From Candidatus Heimdallarchaeum endolithica (GTDB lineage Archaea > Asgardarchaeota > Heimdallarchaeia > Heimdallarchaeales > Heimdallarchaeaceae), in NCBI GenBank assembly GCA_021513715.1, contig CP084167.1, forward strand, positions 32,001 to 96,000: a stretch of 64,000 nt of DNA, written 5' to 3'. Made by a program: the position numbers and the translations under genes. Every line of letters begins with the position of its first letter. Within the stretch, counting starts at the first letter, position 1. The notes under the pieces were generated by a model that saw only the letters and a list, made by a program, of their open reading frames with translations, did not search any database and was not told where the DNA came from. This document shows, piece after piece, positions 947-12,534 of the stretch.

Positions 947-1244
947 TTTAAGAAAATTCATATTTATCTACGCAACCACTAATGTTTTTATTAAATGAAT
1001 TAGTTAATAATCTATTTTTTGTTACTTTTTATTCATAATTTGAATCCACTAGCTATTTAATAATTGTCCACAGAATCAATTAACTGTTTTCCAAATGGAT
1101 AAAGCTTTTTCTTACTTGATAATTGTTCATCACATGCAGTTTCAAAAAATAAAAAGTGTTAAATGAGATCTAATATGAACCAATTAAAAAATCTTTGAGA
1201 TTCATGTTTTAGTATAAGCAAAAATTTTTTTTGTTTTATCTGTT

Positions 1245-1730
1245 CTATCTTACTCCCATATTCCAAGCTAATCTTTTTGCTGTTACTCTTTCCCATTTGT
1301 TCAAAGCACTTTTTGCTGAAATGGTTTCTGTTAAGAACGTATGTGGGAAATCTTTTATGAATTTGATCAAATCTTCCTTACTTTCTACTTTTTCTAAAAG
1401 GGCAGGTGTGATAAAGAATGTTACTGAAAAACCTGGTTCTGGTTCCGACATTACTATCCCTGTTTCTTTAAATAGTGTTTTGCAAATTCTTTTTAACAAC
1501 ATATCATCGAATGGATCTTTTATTTCTATTATTAGCGATATTAGGCTAGAATTTTTTGTTTTTTCTATTAGCCCATTTTCTAAAAAATATTGTTTTAGTT
1601 CCATTTTTTGGCATTCTTTACAAACCACACATGGATAGTTTATTCCTTTCATTGGACAAATAAAGTTGGAAACATTAAATGCTTCTCTTATCTTTCTTTC
1701 ATCATCCCAAAACTCGCTCTGTGAAGACAT
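1245..1730 (-). CDS. Hypothetical protein with an N-terminal Cys cluster (CPMKGINYPCVVCKEC)
   Basis: 161-aa ORF with a GGAG-type RBS upstream and normal composition; family not recognised. Confidence 0.55.
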   Translation of the reverse strand: MSSQSEFWDDERKIREAFNVSNFICPMKGINYPCVVCKECQKMELKQYFLENGLIEKTKNSSLISLIIEIKDPFDDMLLKRICKTLFKETGIVMSEPEPGFSVTFFITPALLEKVESKEDLIKFIKDFPHTFLTETISAKSALNKWERVTAKRLAWNMGVR

Positions 1731-1786
1731 TTGCTACTCCTTTATTTTTTTTTACTATATTAAAGATTTATTGATAACTAAAGAAA

Positions 1787-2233
1787 TTAAACATAAAAGA
1801 TTTTTTCACTTTGTTTTATTAATTTCTTATCTCTTCTTATCCAAGTAGGATAGGAAAAAGCTTTCATATTTTTAGAAATAGTCTCCTTTAATTCCCACAA
1901 ATAACGAAAGCTCTCTTCTATATTTTCATCAAAAGATTCTAAAAACTTTTTTGAGGATTTTTTGAACTTCTTTAATCTCTCTGTTGCCTTAACAGGATTA
2001 GCTGTTCCTCTTGTCTTTTTAAATTCTCCTTGCCATTCATAGAATTCTTTAAGATTGTAGTGATATTTCATTTCAACTATGATTAATTCTAAATCTGCAC
2101 GAATATTCCATAAAGCTTCTCTATTCTCGCTTGGAGGGATATCTTCTTTATTCAATGAAGAACGAACACGGGAGTATTTGTTAAGTATCTTCTTTATTCT
2201 TTTTTTTAGATCTTCTTTGTTCACTTGAAGCAT
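1787..2233 (-). CDS. Hypothetical basic helical protein
   Basis: 148-aa ORF; no recognisable motif. Confidence 0.6.
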   Translation of the reverse strand: MLQVNKEDLKKRIKKILNKYSRVRSSLNKEDIPPSENREALWNIRADLELIIVEMKYHYNLKEFYEWQGEFKKTRGTANPVKATERLKKFKKSSKKFLESFDENIEESFRYLWELKETISKNMKAFSYPTWIRRDKKLIKQSEKIFYV

Positions 2234-2343
2234 TAAGGAAGAAATGAATAGCCTTGTTTAAAAGTATTCCTTTTTTCTTAATTTAGCATTTGAAACAGAA
2301 TAGGTCTAGAAACACTATTAAATACTTGAATTTAGGAAAACAC

Positions 2344-3528
2344 ATGCAATCAGTAAAAAGATTCAACAAAGAATTTCTTATTGATGAAAACTTGATCTAT
2401 TTGGATTCAGCAACAACAGGGAGACTACCCAAAGAATCTTTTGAAGAGATGTCTTCCTTCATACTTGAGTGTAATGGTTTTCCTCGTGGAGCAACACATA
2501 AACTAGGTATTTGTGCAAGCAAAGCATTGAGAAAAGCTAGAGAAAGCATAAGTGAATTTTTTAAAGTTAATCCTAAAAATCTATTTTTCTTACCTAGTAT
2601 TGAAGTAGCTCTAATAAACAACATTTTCTCTCACAACTGGGCAGAAGGAGAAGAAATAATTACAAGTGTAGCAGAAGAACATTCAATTCTTGCTCCTATT
2701 TTAAAAGGTAGTAAAAAGTTTGGTTATTCAGTAACTTATCTTACTTTAGAAGATGAAAAAGATATTATAAAAGCTCTAAAAAATAAAATAACTGAAAAAA
2801 CAAAATTTGTCATTCTGTCTGCAGTAACTTATATAATAGGTTCAAAAAGAGATTGGAGAAAAATAATAGAAATAACAAAAGAGAAAAAAGTGAAATTTAT
2901 TTTTGATATAAGTAAAATAGTAGGACACGAGCCTTTGTACTTTAAAGATGAATGTCCTGATGCAGTAATCTTTTCATCTTCTGTGGGAGCTTTAGGTTTA
3001 CCAGGAGTTGCAGTACAAATATCAAAAGATGAATATATTCAAGAATTTGACCCAGTTCTTGTAGGTTCAAATTCTATTAGATTGATGAAAAAAGATGAAT
3101 ATGAACTGGCAGCGCCTTCTCTTAAATATGAACCAGGTGTACCAAATCTACCCGGAATAATAGCTCTAGCAAAAAGTTTGGAAGTATTAAAAGAGATAGG
3201 GCTAGAAAAAATAAAAGAACATGAGAACAAACTAAAAAAAATAATAGAGTCAAAAATAAAAGAAGACCCTAATATAGAAACAATCACTTTAGAAGGGATA
3301 GAAAAAGGGCCAATATATACATTACAAATTAAAGGATTTGACCCTTATGACATAGCAATAATACTGGAAGATGTGGGTAATATAATAGTAAGAGCAGGAT
3401 CTTTTTGCTCACACTTGTTAATGGATGAACTAGAAAAAGAAAATGTGCTACAAATATCTACTCATGTATTCAATACAGAAGAAGAAATAAATAAATTATT
3501 TGAAACATTAAAGATGCTAAATGAATAA
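2344..3528 (+). CDS. Aminotransferase class V / SufS-like cysteine desulfurase homolog with a degenerate active site
   Basis: YLDSATT, EEHS, EPGVPN and VRAGSFCS align with SufS motifs. FSSSVG replaces FSGHK. Likely start is ATG 2344. Confidence 0.85.
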   Translation: MQSVKRFNKEFLIDENLIYLDSATTGRLPKESFEEMSSFILECNGFPRGATHKLGICASKALRKARESISEFFKVNPKNLFFLPSIEVALINNIFSHNWAEGEEIITSVAEEHSILAPILKGSKKFGYSVTYLTLEDEKDIIKALKNKITEKTKFVILSAVTYIIGSKRDWRKIIEITKEKKVKFIFDISKIVGHEPLYFKDECPDAVIFSSSVGALGLPGVAVQISKDEYIQEFDPVLVGSNSIRLMKKDEYELAAPSLKYEPGVPNLPGIIALAKSLEVLKEIGLEKIKEHENKLKKIIESKIKEDPNIETITLEGIEKGPIYTLQIKGFDPYDIAIILEDVGNIIVRAGSFCSHLLMDELEKENVLQISTHVFNTEEEINKLFETLKMLNE

Positions 3529-3712
3529 TTAATCTTTTACATCATTATCACCTTCTATTTTTCTTTATTTTTTTGCATTTAATGTTTTAAAATGTTAGTT
3601 TATTTAGACAATGTAAAAAAAAACAACTATAAACAAAGAAATAAAGTAAAAAAAAACTTCTAAGTTTAAAATAGTTTAAATTTTTGTCCAAATTAGTTAT
3701 TTCTCAATTTTT

Positions 3713-4210
3713 CTAGGTACTTAACCATTTGTTAATATTTTCTCCATTATACTCTCTTGGATCTTTATATCTTATTCCCAAATGCTTGAAACACTTTTTA
3801 TCGCTTGATAACATGACAATGTTATCAATGTCTTTGGTTAATAAAGATATTTCATCAACGTCACAATTACATAAATTAAAGTCAATAATACTAAAATTTC
3901 TTAAAAATTTTCTAACATCATTATTGCTTAAATAGAGAATATCTATTCGATTTTGATTGAAAAAACGCATTATTCTTTTTATTTTATTATTAAAATCATT
4001 CCACGTTAGATCCTTAAAGATTGTACATCGTAGATTCTTTATTATTTCAAAAAAAACTGTCATTGTAATATACATTCTTTTATTGTGTTCGACCATTTCA
4101 TATAAAAATTTTGAAACTGAATTGTAAGCTAGTTGCTCTGAAGTTAAATCTCTGAACATATCAATAATAACTGTTGCATCAATGGGATAATAATGTTCAG
4201 GATAATACAT
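3713..4210 (-). CDS. PIN-domain (VapC-like) ribonuclease/toxin
   Basis: Acidic PIN pattern: IDATVII, VFFEI, DVDEISL and LSSDKK. Confidence 0.75.
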   Translation of the reverse strand: MYYPEHYYPIDATVIIDMFRDLTSEQLAYNSVSKFLYEMVEHNKRMYITMTVFFEIIKNLRCTIFKDLTWNDFNNKIKRIMRFFNQNRIDILYLSNNDVRKFLRNFSIIDFNLCNCDVDEISLLTKDIDNIVMLSSDKKCFKHLGIRYKDPREYNGENINKWLST

Positions 4211-4211
4211 T

Positions 4212-4589
4212 TTAATCTTCTACTAATGATTTCATTGCTTTCTTAATTTCTTCTGCACTTGATGCAATTTTCCCCATTTCTATTGTTTGTATTTTTTCAT
4301 CAACAATTTGAAACCATAATTTAGTTCCAACCTTCCAATTTAATTCTCTAATTATTTCTTTAGGTATTTTTACAATATTACCTGGTTGCAATATTGCTTC
4401 TTTTTCTATTCTAATTGGTAAATGTTTTATAGGCTCATTTAACTTTCTTGTGATTTTTAACTCTCTGCTTTCCTTAATTTCATAAAAATTGGTATATTGT
4501 TCATTAATCTCAAGACCATTAAATGATACATTTTCGTATTGTTCATCATATTCACTTTCATAAAGGCTTGTTCTACTCATTTCTCTCAC
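4212..4589 (-). CDS. AbrB/MazE/SpoVT-family DNA-binding protein (putative antitoxin) with an acidic N-terminal extension
   Basis: GNIVKIPKEIIRELNWKVGTKLWF matches the AbrB swapped-hairpin motif. The gene ends 1 bp upstream of the PIN gene. Confidence 0.75.
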   Translation of the reverse strand: MREMSRTSLYESEYDEQYENVSFNGLEINEQYTNFYEIKESRELKITRKLNEPIKHLPIRIEKEAILQPGNIVKIPKEIIRELNWKVGTKLWFQIVDEKIQTIEMGKIASSAEEIKKAMKSLVED

Positions 4590-5197
4590 CGTTCTTCAAT
4601 TTTAATCTTTATTTCGTTTAATTTGCTAATCAATTTTTCTAATTCAATTTTAGAAAGTGATAGTGTTACTATCCTTGGTTCAAGCTGGTTAGCAATGTAA
4701 TAAAGATAAAGATTTGCTTGAATTTCTTCTATATCGCTATTTTTACCAATGTAAATTTTTTTTGAGATATCATAATCAATTTTTGCTAGAACATTTGAAA
4801 CTCTGTTTGTGGCTGAAATTAGATAAATTTTCAACTCTTTGTTTAGTAAATTGATGATTTTTTTAAGCTTTTCAATTGTTTCACTAGAATATTTTGTTAT
4901 CTTAATTTCTCCATTCTTAAATTCATCATATATTGCAGCGATGATATTAGTTAGTAATATGCCAATTTCTTTACCAGATAAACCAATTTCTTCTTCAGGT
5001 TCAAAATATCGAGCGATTTTAATACCAAAACCATCTTCCATTGTGTCAATTCTTATCGTATTCTCTTTTATTGCATTTTGAATTATTTTGCTTAATTGTT
5101 TAGTTTGATTGATATCAAACTTTTTAATTATTTCTTCATCTTTTTGTATTCTTTTATTTTTTGCTTCAATGATATCATTTAAGTTTTGGTTTTCCAT
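4586..5197 (-). CDS. Putative COMMD-like protein (helical N-domain plus C-terminal COMM-like domain)
   Basis: The C-terminal ~70 aa (VLAKIDYDISKK...ANLYLYY...IVTLSLSKIELEKLISKLNEIK) follow the COMM three-strand plus helix pattern. Size is 203 aa. Overlaps the AbrB gene by ATGA. Confidence 0.55.
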   Translation of the reverse strand: MENQNLNDIIEAKNKRIQKDEEIIKKFDINQTKQLSKIIQNAIKENTIRIDTMEDGFGIKIARYFEPEEEIGLSGKEIGILLTNIIAAIYDEFKNGEIKITKYSSETIEKLKKIINLLNKELKIYLISATNRVSNVLAKIDYDISKKIYIGKNSDIEEIQANLYLYYIANQLEPRIVTLSLSKIELEKLISKLNEIKIKIEER

Positions 5198-5581
5198 AAT
5201 TTGTTCTTTCCTTAGATTATTTGATTCCTCTAAACTTAAATAGTTTTAGACTAATATTAATTTTTTTTTAGGAATAATTTTAAATGTTACTTACCTTTTT
5301 TTAAATAAAAGTTACTCTTTTAATCTACATTCTATCTTTCAGGTGAAACACAAAAGTAAGAAAAGATATGTTACTTATGAATTATTGTTCAATTTTGTAT
5401 TATAACAATTTTAATTTTTCACATTTTTATTTTATGTAGAGTTTTTATCAAAAAATTATAATGAAGTTACTTTGTTAATTGATGTTATCCTTTTTAATAT
5501 TGATAATTTTAAAGGGTCACCTTAGCTTCTTCATGGCATTGCTCACGCTTCACCAAATGCCTTACGATCATCCCCATATAT

Positions 5582-5605
5582 TTTGTACGTACAAATGTAC
5601 GTACA
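5582..5605. promoter_or_regulatory. Tandem palindromes TTTGTACGTACAAA + TGTACGTACA (candidate operator)
   Basis: A perfect 14-bp palindrome (5582-5595) is followed directly by a 10-bp copy (5596-5605), with a 12-bp period. Confidence 0.4.
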
Positions 5606-5884
5606 ATAAAATCATTTTACTTCTCTCTTCTAAATTTTTCTAAAGATGTCTTTTTATTAAATATTAGAAAGTGGGATGATTCTTCGTTAAAGTTAACCAT
5701 TTTGTTTTTCAAAAGGAAGTATATAAAATAACTGTAAAACTTATTCAAGAAAAGAAATATACTGATTTATTTCGTGAGGAGAAGAATAAAAAAAAGTAAT
5801 TGTGCAGATATTGCCTATTCTCTCATAAAAAAACTAAAAGAAATGAACAAAAAAGAGTATAAATCCTATAAGCATTACAATTAA

Positions 5885-6265
5885 TCAAATGATAAACAGA
5901 TACAGATCTAATGTTTTTATTGTTAAAGAGTTAAGCATTTCTTGAGCCTTTGTCTGATTTATTTTCTTCATTTTAAGAAAAACTAGTAGTAACGAGATGA
6001 AAATTATAGCTATAGAAATAAAACATAAAATTATTCCAGAAATAACTATTATTAGATCATTAATTAAAATCTCATTATCACGTAATTTCTGAAATGCAAG
6101 AAGGGAAATTAAAGCAAATAACAAAGTAAAAAAAGTTGCAATTAAAACTTCTATTCCTAGTTTTAATAGTATAGGAGTTAACTTTTTACCATCATATAAT
6201 CTATATTCAGAAAACTGTTTACTATCGTATAATTTAGATTCAGTATCAGATTCCGAGTTATTCAT
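5885..6265 (-). CDS. Small membrane protein (2 TM)
   Basis: 126 aa with two long hydrophobic segments. Confidence 0.55.
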   Translation of the reverse strand: MNNSESDTESKLYDSKQFSEYRLYDGKKLTPILLKLGIEVLIATFFTLLFALISLLAFQKLRDNEILINDLIIVISGIILCFISIAIIFISLLLVFLKMKKINQTKAQEMLNSLTIKTLDLYLFII

Positions 6266-6377
6266 TGTATTTCACTTTAATTAATGTTAAATATTTATAT
6301 TTTTTCACCAGAATCTCAATAATTAAAAGTGCTAATGAACCTATTACTCCTAGAAAGCAGAAAAACAATTAGCATGT

Positions 6378-9176: not shown

Positions 9177-9315
9177 TACACATCACCAGTTTATGAGTAG
9201 AATTGTAGTATTCTTACTCTGCTGACAAGTATATCTCGAGCAAGAACTAAAATAATTAAAGTAAGTTTTCTAATTTATTTTTTTTTATAAAGGCAAAATA
9301 CCGACATTATTCATA

Positions 9316-9498
9316 TCACCCGGAGTATCGTAGTAGTATTGAACATGTCTTTGGTTTCCTCAAACTCTCTCTTCCCCTGTTCCTTTATCGTTTACCCTTC
9401 AAGATTTTCTTTATGCTTTACAGTTCTCTCCTCTGTTGCAACTACCTTTTACTTCTTCGGACCGTTTAGTAGGTGAAAAAGAATTTTTGGACATGCTT
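9316..9498 (+). mobile_element. 3' remnant of the IS5-family element (right end with IR)
   Basis: Aligns with 13431-13614, including AATTTTTGGACATGCTT. Lies between the two copies of the duplicated module. Confidence 0.85.
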
Positions 9499-9557
9499 TA
9501 AATAATAAACAAACAAATAAATGCACTTTCTAAAGAATAAAAAAGAAAAAAAGATTG

Positions 9558-11358: not shown

Positions 11359-12534
11359 CTAAACACTTTTTCCTCTTGAGTAAATGTATAATGTAGCTTT
11401 TTCATCAAATTCTTCTAACCATTCTTTCACTTCATGAGAAAAAGACTGCAAATCACTATCACTAATATCTAAATAATAAAGGTTTTTCAATTTTGATATG
11501 TTTTTTGGAAGATCTTTTAATTCATTACCATAAAGTTTCAAAGTCTGTAGAGTTTTAATATAACATATTTTCTCTGGTAAGTACTTGAGTTTATTATTAC
11601 CTAGATCAAGTATTTGAAGACTTGTTAGCTTATCTATATTATTTGGTAATTCGCTTAACTGATTACTTTTGAGGTCTAATATATTTAATTTGGTTAAATC
11701 ACTAATACACTCTGGTAATGATGATAATTTATTTCCTGCTATGTTCAATAGTTTTAAAGTTTTTAATTTGCAGATTGATTCTGGAAAAGTAGTTAGGTTA
11801 TTATACGCAAGATGAAGAAGATACATGCTTCTTAATTTTTTAAAGTTGTCAGGTAAATTATGAAGAGAATTATTGTTCAAAAAAAGCTTTTGAAGCCTGC
11901 TTAATTCTCCAATACTTTCTGGTAAAAATTCGATATTGTTAAAAGTTAACTCCAACATTTCTAAATATCTTAAATTTCCTATAGTATCAGGTAGAAAGGT
12001 TAAACAGTTTTTGTTTACACTTAGTTCCTTTAACTTTTTTAAGTTATCAATACTTTCAGGTAAAGAAGTTAATTTATTGTTATATAAGTTCAAGACTTCT
12101 AGTTCTGATAAATCACCAATTGATTCTGGGAGAGTTGTTAAATTATTTCCACAAATTGTTAATTCTTTCAAATTTTTCAAATTAGTGATATTTTCAGGTA
12201 AATATTTGAGTTCATTAGAAGTCAATTCTAAAACTTGGAGTTTAGATAAATCACCAATTGATTCTGGAAGAGACTTCAAATTGTTTTGCCTTACATATAA
12301 TTCTACTAAATTTGTTAGTTCACCAATGGACTCTGGGAGAGATTCTAGTTGATTATTGTTAATTTGTAACGTTTGCAGATTTTGTAATGAAATTATGTCA
12401 TGAGGAAACTTTGTTAGTCCTTGTTCGTATAAACCAATTCCTGTAATTGTTTGATTTTTATAAGTTATTCCAAAGGTTTTATGTTGAATACTATCAACTA
12501 CAGGCATTTTATCAAAATCAAGTTTTTCTTGCAT
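11359..12534 (-). CDS. Leucine-rich repeat protein
   Basis: About 14 23-aa repeats of LxxLxLxxNxLxxLPExIGxLxx. Confidence 0.95.
   Translation of the reverse strand: MQEKLDFDKMPVVDSIQHKTFGITYKNQTITGIGLYEQGLTKFPHDIISLQNLQTLQINNNQLESLPESIGELTNLVELYVRQNNLKSLPESIGDLSKLQVLELTSNELKYLPENITNLKNLKELTICGNNLTTLPESIGDLSELEVLNLYNNKLTSLPESIDNLKKLKELSVNKNCLTFLPDTIGNLRYLEMLELTFNNIEFLPESIGELSRLQKLFLNNNSLHNLPDNFKKLRSMYLLHLAYNNLTTFPESICKLKTLKLLNIAGNKLSSLPECISDLTKLNILDLKSNQLSELPNNIDKLTSLQILDLGNNKLKYLPEKICYIKTLQTLKLYGNELKDLPKNISKLKNLYYLDISDSDLQSFSHEVKEWLEEFDEKATLYIYSRGKSV

Follow-up and report, generated by a model that had tools for sequence, protein, structure and literature searches.

Prokaryotic COMMD-like proteins, described from bacteria and archaea including Asgard lineages, assemble into rings of 8 or 10 subunits (PDB 9q6a/9q6c), are defined by structure, with less than 20% identity to eukaryotic COMMDs, and have been reported with their function given as unknown (Liu et al., Nat Commun 2026, PMC13392464). 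The gene neighbourhoods published for them contain type VI secretion-like genes in Myxococcota, and other genes in Chlamydia and Haloarcula (PMC13392464), and a second study from 2026 modelled a homodecamer for an Asgard COMMD homologue and took the Asgard proteins as hints of eukaryote-like compartmentalisation (PMC12962969). A third component of another kind is found in toxin–antitoxin–chaperone (TAC) systems, where a SecB-like protein binds an aggregation-prone extension of the antitoxin, in which aromatic residues are reportedly required; the same protein serves modules of the HigBA, MqsRA and HicAB types (Bordes et al., 2016, PMC5105189). Here we describe a cassette of three minus-strand genes, termed genes 1, 2 and 3 in operon order, from Candidatus Heimdallarchaeum endolithica, the genome of which is a single 3.33-Mb contig; the DNA analysed, called the window throughout, is a stretch of 64,000 nt (contig CP084167.1, positions 32,001 to 96,000). 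We consider it probable that these genes form a three-part toxin–antitoxin (TA)-type module that is headed by a COMMD-like protein.

The three encoded proteins

Gene 1 escapes recognition by sequence. The Pfam and NCBIfam libraries gave no match for it, the Pfam COMM_domain (PF07258) included, a word-based homologue search returned only the gene 1 protein itself, and phmmer against PDB sequences retrieved nothing meaningful. HMMER, run exhaustively against 1.8 billion representatives, yielded five relatives with 28-34% identity. Within the gene 1 family, one of eight members matches PF07258 (E 0.055) and none reaches the Pfam threshold; when 400 genomes of the phylum were scanned with PF07258, no match exceeded the cut-off either. 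No convincing match emerged when viral models (BFVD) were searched with Foldseek, and tblastn of gene 1 against phages gave none. PADLOC offered a LeoA identity from a helical stretch (E 0.002), which we set aside as noise of the coiled-coil type.

AlphaFold2 produced a gene 1 model with a predicted local distance difference test score (pLDDT) of 87 and a predicted template-modelling score of 0.72 from a 6-row alignment. Its N-domain consists of five helices (residues 3-26, 29-44, 75-95, 105-117 and 120-131, assigned with DSSP) and an inserted beta-hairpin (48-61), and its C-terminal part, at pLDDT 84-95, of strands 136-150, 155-168 and 174-181 followed by helix 183-202. In a Foldseek search of the PDB, ranks 1-21 were all occupied by COMMD or COMMD-like proteins with a probability of 1.0. 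The best match was 9q6a, a bacterial COMMD-like protein that forms an octamer (E 1.3e-4), and the top ranks include subunits of the human Commander ring as well as the isolated COMM domain of COMMD9 (template-modelling score (TM) 0.72, root-mean-square deviation (rmsd) 2.1); for COMM-only chains overall, TM was 0.72-0.81 and rmsd 2.1-2.6. A second structural aligner gave Z scores of 8.1-8.6 for COMMD entries and of at most 5.6 for unrelated folds (Pur-alpha, PC4, PX). Its alignments pair 69 residues of the COMM domain of gene 1 with the 70-residue chain 8esd_S (rmsd 2.5, Z 8.6) and 70 residues with the COMM domain of COMMD9, 6bp6_A (rmsd 2.3, Z 8.1); alignments over both domains (residues 11-203) span 168 residues of 8p0w_H and 160 of 9q6a_B (Z 8.5), at a high rmsd of 6.8-8.4. 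In the ESM Atlas, the COMMD10/3/9/6 clusters rank behind three unnamed bacterial clusters (TM 0.50-0.55) when its own gene 1 model is used, and language-model features lead to bacterial clusters in which 23% and 45% of the members carry PF07258.

The models show a predicted COMMD-like two-domain architecture for gene 1, namely a helical N-domain followed by a COMM domain that is built from three strands and a helix. A COMMD-like identity had been guessed in the initial annotation from the pattern of a few C-terminal segments, and the structural matches bear this guess out: the quoted segments do make the three strands and the helix, so that the three-strand/helix COMM fold is kept in the predicted structure.

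Gene 2 resembles AbrB/MazE-type antitoxins, with signals that stay below the family thresholds. It matches MazE_antitoxin PF04014 with 18.6 bits (E 0.0019, cut-off 24.7) and AbrB TIGR01439 with 16.4 bits (E 0.0054, cut-off 28.3), and weak, concordant AbrB/MazE matches from four libraries fall on the same residues (72-105). PF04014 was also matched, again sub-threshold, by three of six gene 2 homologues (best E 4.8e-4), and the gene 2 profile found MazE/PemI chains in the PDB with E 0.09-0.14. The ESM Atlas model has a mean pLDDT of 0.46; residues 53-121 of it match AbrB/MazE/PrlF clusters (TM 0.45-0.70, depending on the matched row), and in five of the six rows the match begins only at residue 51-54. 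An AbrB/MazE-like core is supported by these matches, less strongly than the identity of gene 1. The part ahead of the core, characterised from an alignment of gene 2 sequences and modelled at low confidence (Table 1), is apparently disordered.

This N-terminal extension follows the presence of gene 1. When the gene 2 profile, built from eight sequences, was run against the 400 genomes of the phylum, full-length matches were obtained only in the host genome and in G011, a genome of the same taxonomic family, both of which carry gene 1. In 52 other genomes the profile retrieved short open reading frames (ORFs) through positions 29-133 of its 136, mostly about 50-130, and never through its N-terminal end. 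All five of the short ORFs tested are clear PF04014 proteins (E 4e-17 to 2e-8). The searches show that the extension is present only beside gene 1 and absent from the ordinary AbrB antitoxins of the same phylum. As it co-occurs with gene 1, the extension is therefore a candidate contact site for the COMMD-like protein.

Gene 3 is, with moderate confidence and on the basis of modelling, a PIN-like nuclease. Neither a Pfam scan of gene 3 of the window nor a search of PDB sequences with the gene 3 profile found a PIN match. Sub-threshold matches were obtained with its homologues, to PIN_12 (E 8e-5, 23.5 bits against a cut-off of 32) and to PIN (E 1.5e-3, 19.6 bits against 23.6), and when the family profile was compared by hhalign with the four PIN domains that can be recognised in the host genome, its N-terminal 61 columns aligned with a probability of 67% (E 5e-5). 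The model (pLDDT 74) displays the alternating strand-helix order of PIN domains. Among its first 48 Foldseek matches in the PDB, practically every one is a PIN-fold protein, most often a VapC toxin, although the matches are weak (best E 0.015); SMG6/EST1A, HARP RNase P and FitB are also on the list, and rank 1 is a Cas9-associated PcrIIC1 chain. The second structural aligner gave Z 7.0-5.0 for residues 5-117 only; rank 4 of its list is a cyclodehydratase (RohQ). The motifs that the initial annotation saw, AbrB in gene 2 and PIN in gene 3, are thus present, yet both stay below threshold by sequence, and for gene 3 of the window Pfam returned no PIN domain at all.

Residues D11, T13, D17, T49 and E55 are invariant in six gene 3 sequences, and E120 and S135-S136-D137 are conserved in the five that are full-length. 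From the order of the motifs (D-T at strand 1, T...E, G-E-x-S-L-L, S-S-D), D11, E55, E120 and D137 would be the PIN catalytic positions. Moreover, C62, C114, C116 and C141 are conserved in the closer PIN-like homologues and not in the distant P0012; these four cysteines may constitute a metal site added to the PIN fold.

The three genes are co-directional, tightly packed ORFs within 3713-5197 of the window, with a single-base gap between genes 2 and 3 at 4211. Translational coupling had been put forward for them in the initial annotation: the three adjacent genes and the 1-nt gap are confirmed, whereas the ATGA overlap read at 4586-89 has to be corrected, since the minus strand reads GTGA there (4586-4589), with a possible GTG start of gene 2 that shares bases with the stop codon of gene 1. 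We regard the ATG at 4580 as the most likely start of gene 2, because the resulting 122-aa form is present with an identical sequence in the ESM Atlas and was also called on the sister contig L040. The GGTGA located 5 nt upstream of this ATG may be a Shine-Dalgarno-like site. Positions of all features are collected in Table 1.

Table 1. Positions, in the window, of the cassette, its genes and their parts.
Feature	Position	Strand	Description
Gene 1	4586..5197	minus	Predicted COMMD-like protein, 203 aa; helical N-domain (HN-like), then C-terminal COMM-like domain
COMM-like domain of gene 1	4589..4798	minus	Residues 134-203; three long antiparallel strands and a C-terminal helix (predicted)
Gene 2	4212..4580	minus	Antitoxin-like protein of 122 aa from ATG; alternative GTG start at 4589 would give 125 aa
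N-terminal extension of gene 2	4416..4580	minus	About 55 residues, Glu/Tyr/Phe-rich, poorly conserved
AbrB/MazE/SpoVT-like core of gene 2	4260..4406	minus	Weak sequence matches and Atlas structure matches
Gene 3	3713..4210	minus	Divergent PIN-like putative nuclease toxin, 165 aa
GGTGA	4586..4590	minus	Ribosome-binding-like site read from the sequence, putative function; overlaps stop codon of gene 1
Leader 5' of gene 1	5198..5330	minus	AT-rich, without ORF; presumed promoter/operator
Cassette	3529..5499	no strand	1.97 kb; in the window and L040, absent from the closed same-genus genome G015

Conserved gene order, exchange of the putative toxin and accessory distribution

On every contig with a gene 1 homologue, a gene 2 homologue stands directly behind it. 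In four of the five lineages to which gene 1 led, the two genes share 14-26 nt, and in the fifth, L007, they are 2 nt apart. In total, seven divergent lineages carry the gene 1-gene 2 pair, at 23-38% identity, and the third gene is PIN-like in five of them and ParE/RelE-like in two. The PIN-like type comprises the window, L040, L001, L002 (cut short at the contig edge), L007 and the distant L039, and the ParE/RelE-like type comprises L003-5, L006 and, in genome G011, the two copies L009 and L010; these last two exceed the ParE_toxin cut-off of 23 with 27.4 and 27.5 bits, respectively. The link of gene 1 to PIN-type genes drawn in the initial annotation therefore withstood the survey of neighbourhoods, and ParE/RelE-like toxins have to be added to it. 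Gene 2 is longer in the ParE/RelE-type loci (153-174 aa), with a C-terminal tail that ends in K-G-K-x-x-S-W-E-E/D-L, and in the alignment, the PIN-linked and the ParE/RelE-linked forms have different tails, in line with a neutralisation that is specific to the toxin.

The matrices of pairwise identity for gene 1 and for gene 2 are correlated (Mantel r 0.93, 0 of 5000 permutations), which points to inheritance of the two genes as a unit and speaks for co-inheritance only. The distant trio L039, with genes of 198, 121 and 157 aa, was reached only via its PIN-like gene, which has 27% identity. The gene 2 profile matches the middle gene of this trio with a probability of 94% (E 1.3e-7), and residues 148-188 of the first gene score 21.5 bits against the Pfam COMM_domain (cut-off 22.4). 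We did not accept this first gene as a proven gene 1 homologue, given an hhalign probability of 4%, and counted it as a positional, COMM-like analogue only; tblastn with it against plasmids gave no match.

Two further observations concern the ParE/RelE-type loci. Genome G011 holds two diverged copies of the module (L009 and L010, on contigs C1 and C19), the gene 1 copies of which are 34% identical. Besides, the ParE/RelE-like ORF of L003 (5064-5345) and L010 (717-998) is open in frame right after the end of gene 2 (stop codon TAG in L003), and this stretch is conserved, without any ATG, GTG or TTG until 41 codons in, and with GGAGAGG just upstream of an ATC codon. Translation of this ORF may start at an unusual start codon, by re-initiation or by read-through.

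The module is accessory in its distribution, as the gene 1 profile detects it in 2 of the 400 genomes of the phylum. Alignment with the closed genome G015 locates the borders of the cassette: window 1213-3528 corresponds to G015 169-2487 (95% identity) and window 5500-6376 to G015 2497-3373 (85%), so that exactly 3529-5499 is missing from G015, with about 25 unrelated bases in its place. The GC content of the cassette is 23.6%, against 28.5-29.4% in the flanks. L040, a metagenome contig from the Joint Genome Institute (JGI), shares 91% identity with window 1812-5811 and has the cassette in the same place, with cassette genes that are 93-97% identical to those of the window.

Between the window and L040, the ratio of nonsynonymous to synonymous substitutions (dN/dS, omega) is 0.12 for gene 1, 0.11 for gene 2 and 0.08 for gene 3, at dS 0.15-0.27, and the flanking aminotransferase gene has a ratio of 0.09 at dS 0.25. 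All three genes are under purifying selection, with omega about 0.1, and the homologous trios on unrelated contigs likewise speak against chance ORFs. From the low dN/dS and the copy of L040 at the same site, we therefore take the cassette to have been kept by selection and to have been at this site for some time. Loss of the cassette in G015 would be the simpler account, because G015 is closer to the window in the flank and yet lacks the cassette.

Insertion-end direct or inverted repeats were not found around the cassette. A 15-nt repeat at 3701/5628 was considered as a target duplication and rejected, as it spans the conserved flank. At the right border lies a stretch of about 90 nt (window 5514-5606) that is almost unchanged in G015 (2513-2600), and the cassette ends right beside it; Rfam and tRNA scans gave no match in this stretch or in the cassette and its borders as a whole. 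Beyond window position ~5811, the sequence is replaced in L040 (184-2070) by phage-type genes (Bro-N and ORF6C/Rha-like) and a separate MazE-type gene, which suggests that the neighbourhood is an insertion hot spot. Upstream of the module in L003 (1151-3684) are a gene for a 791-aa protein whose PF27228 domain takes its name from a plasmid gene of Methanothermobacter, and a small gene of the ribbon-helix-helix type; these hint that the L003 copy resides on a plasmid-like element.

As for the surroundings of the cassette in the window, an aminotransferase class-V gene on the opposite strand (2290-3528) adjoins it on one side, and on the other side small membrane-protein-like ORFs lie beyond the gene-free leader of gene 1. 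A 161-aa ORF at 1245-1730 on the minus strand, 2 kb from the cassette genes, matches the eukaryotic ARP2/3 complex subunit ARPC4 family over the cut-off (PF05856, E 1.3e-9), and a leucine-rich-repeat gene is located at 11359-12534; such neighbours are in keeping with an Asgard-type archaeon. In addition, an element of about 190 nt at 9315-9505 has at least 11 dispersed matches in G015 with 83-90% identity; it looks like a dispersed repeat and is possibly a miniature mobile element.

Possible function of the module

We favour the reading that the cassette is a mobile, accessory, three-gene TA-type module; taken as a whole with the mechanism outlined below, we hold this explanation to be more likely than not. 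Judged from sequence and distribution, the locus combines several traits of type II TA systems, that is, adjacent small genes on the same strand, tight coupling, a patchy and mobile distribution, and exchange of the toxin. In the VapBC and MazEF systems, a dimer of the AbrB-like antitoxin represses the operon and the C-terminal tail of the antitoxin blocks the toxin. The AbrB-like domain of gene 2 would likewise dimerise and repress its operon, and the C-terminal tail of gene 2 would block the nuclease toxin. A ring formed by gene 1 would hold the disordered extension of gene 2 and would in this way control the folding, stability, availability or release of the antitoxin, and if the ring were lost or titrated, for example through a stress or through an invading element, the toxin would be released, with RNA cleavage and growth arrest as the outcome. 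The specific role of gene 1 as a chaperone or gate is proposed by analogy and is tentative; we hold it to be doubtful.

Several points weigh against the module being of this kind. We infer every step of the mechanism, and binding between gene 1 and gene 2 as well as the toxicity of gene 3 are proposals only. COMMD folds are not known as chaperones. In TAC operons, the chaperone gene comes last. Gene 1 is the first gene of its operon, and the extension of gene 2 is N-terminal, whereas that of TAC antitoxins is C-terminal (PMC5105189). The words toxin and antitoxin occur neither in PMC13392464 nor in PMC12962969, and the published surveys of COMMD-like neighbourhoods do not mention TA genes. The family of gene 1 is tiny, with six clusters at 50% identity among the 1.8 billion representatives, and its membership in COMMD rests on a fold predicted from a 6-sequence alignment, without reaching the Pfam threshold. 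The PIN assignment of gene 3 in the window is weak (no Pfam match, pLDDT 74, E 0.015 and Z of at most 7, which is a commonplace level), and its third acidic residue would be a Glu where an Asp is usual. All three family assignments were made from predicted structures or sub-threshold sequence signals, with alignments of 6-8 rows.

The main alternative overlaps with the preferred reading and does not exclude it: the cassette might serve in abortive infection directed at viruses or plasmids, where the COMMD-like ring would sense a protein of the invader and release the nuclease, and the TA-like pair would be the effector arm and not an addiction module. The patchy accessory distribution (2/400 genomes), the exact indel relative to G015 and the low GC are all in line with such a role, and so is the position of the L040 copy, which abuts phage genes of the Bro-N and ORF6C/Rha type; moreover, TAC systems themselves are reported to take part in phage defence (bioRxiv 10.1101/2024.02.24.581848, PMC11618068). 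Nevertheless, PADLOC matched no model to the cassette beyond the weak LeoA hit, no recognised defence genes are found immediately beside the cassette, and the sequence data do not separate sensing from chaperoning. We consider a defence role of this kind unlikely. Another possibility is that gene 1 is a regulator or nucleic-acid binder and not a partner of the gene 2 extension; it would contact DNA or RNA via its beta-beta-beta-alpha domain, in the manner of PC4, Pur-alpha and Whirly folds, and act as an operon co-repressor, like the third genes of the omega-epsilon-zeta and paaR-paaA-parE systems. Three-gene TA systems with a separate regulator do exist. The C-terminal domain of gene 1 aligns with Pur-alpha at Z 5.5-5.6 and with PC4/Sub1/Whirly at Z 3.4-4.9; the COMMD matches, however, outscore these by about 3 Z units and cover both domains (160-168 aligned residues), and no Pur-alpha or PC4 protein is among the Foldseek top 50. 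Gene 2, moreover, already possesses an AbrB domain of the DNA-binding type. We regard a regulatory gene 1 as very unlikely.

Still less probable, in our opinion, is a gene 1 that is merely co-transcribed as a passenger, with an unrelated cellular role, for instance in membranes or as a scaffold, as has been suggested for Asgard COMMD homologues, next to an ordinary VapBC-like pair of genes 2 and 3. Genes 1 and 2 remain adjacent in the seven lineages, in spite of 23-38% identity, while the toxin family changes, the extension of gene 2 occurs solely together with gene 1, and the cassette is absent from G015 and from 398/400 genomes of the phylum, which is unlike a core cellular role. What can be said for a passenger is that the interaction of the gene products is a proposal only, and that Asgard COMMD-like proteins have been read as possible markers of endosomal-type complexity (PMC12962969).

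Returning to the TA-type module as the preferred reading, the fold of gene 1 represents a further member of the known COMMD-like family. Its setting is another matter: the published COMMD-like neighbourhoods differ from the present one, and our literature search found nothing linking COMMD-like proteins or the COMM domain to toxin-antitoxin systems, with an unrelated optogenetics review as the sole co-occurrence. We therefore regard the proposed three-part module of a COMMD-like protein, an extended AbrB-type antitoxin and an exchangeable toxin as a new tripartite TA arrangement. The module would give the prokaryotic COMMD-like proteins, the function of which is unknown, a concrete and testable working context, and it possibly adds a new kind of third component to the tripartite TA systems. 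It also calls for caution in taking such COMMD-like genes as evidence of endosomal machinery. One may speculate further that prokaryotic COMMD-type rings in general are handling or sensing parts of mobile TA and defence cassettes, with varied antitoxin folds and toxins in archaea and bacteria, and that the COMMD ring of Commander descends from such a component of a conflict system and not from a trafficking machine. We hold this to be quite unlikely; were it true, Asgard COMMD-like genes would not indicate endosomal complexity.

Likeness to described systems

With the prokaryotic COMMD-like proteins described so far, gene 1 shares its length of about 200 aa, a predicted layout of helical N-domain and COMM domain, and the fact that it is detected by structure only; the presence of one gene per genome was likewise counted as a shared trait. 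The gene 1 family differs from the published proteins by the beta-hairpin inserted in its N-domain (48-61), which contains the invariant G56-F57, and its neighbourhood differs from the published ones in that the neighbour of gene 1 is always an AbrB-type antitoxin-like gene.

The pair of genes 2 and 3 is reminiscent of VapBC. Both genes are small, adjacent and on the same strand, the antitoxin precedes the toxin with a gap of 1 nt, and the AbrB/MazE-like domain carries a short tail at its C-terminal end; besides, the best matches of the predicted PIN-like fold are mostly VapC toxins, and the distribution is patchy and mobile. Unlike in VapBC, a larger third gene precedes the pair, the AbrB-like domain is located in the C-terminal half of the protein, where the extension of about 55 residues precedes it, both domains remain below the Pfam thresholds, and the PIN-like protein is longer (165-179 aa), with conserved Cys residues in most members.

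The design of the module is closest in kind to that of TAC, judged from its operon-encoded third protein and from an antitoxin extension that is absent from two-gene relatives. In both cases, moreover, one third component goes together with unrelated toxin families, which are HigB, MqsR and HicA in TAC and PIN and ParE/RelE here. The components themselves are different, as gene 1 is COMMD-like and not SecB-like, with no SecB entry among the 50 best rows of either PDB structure search, and the extension is N-terminal with gene 1 first in the operon. We thus understand the likeness to TAC as an analogy of design and not as membership, and by this analogy the module may work in a TAC-like manner, with a COMMD-like protein in the position that TAC gives to a SecB-like one.

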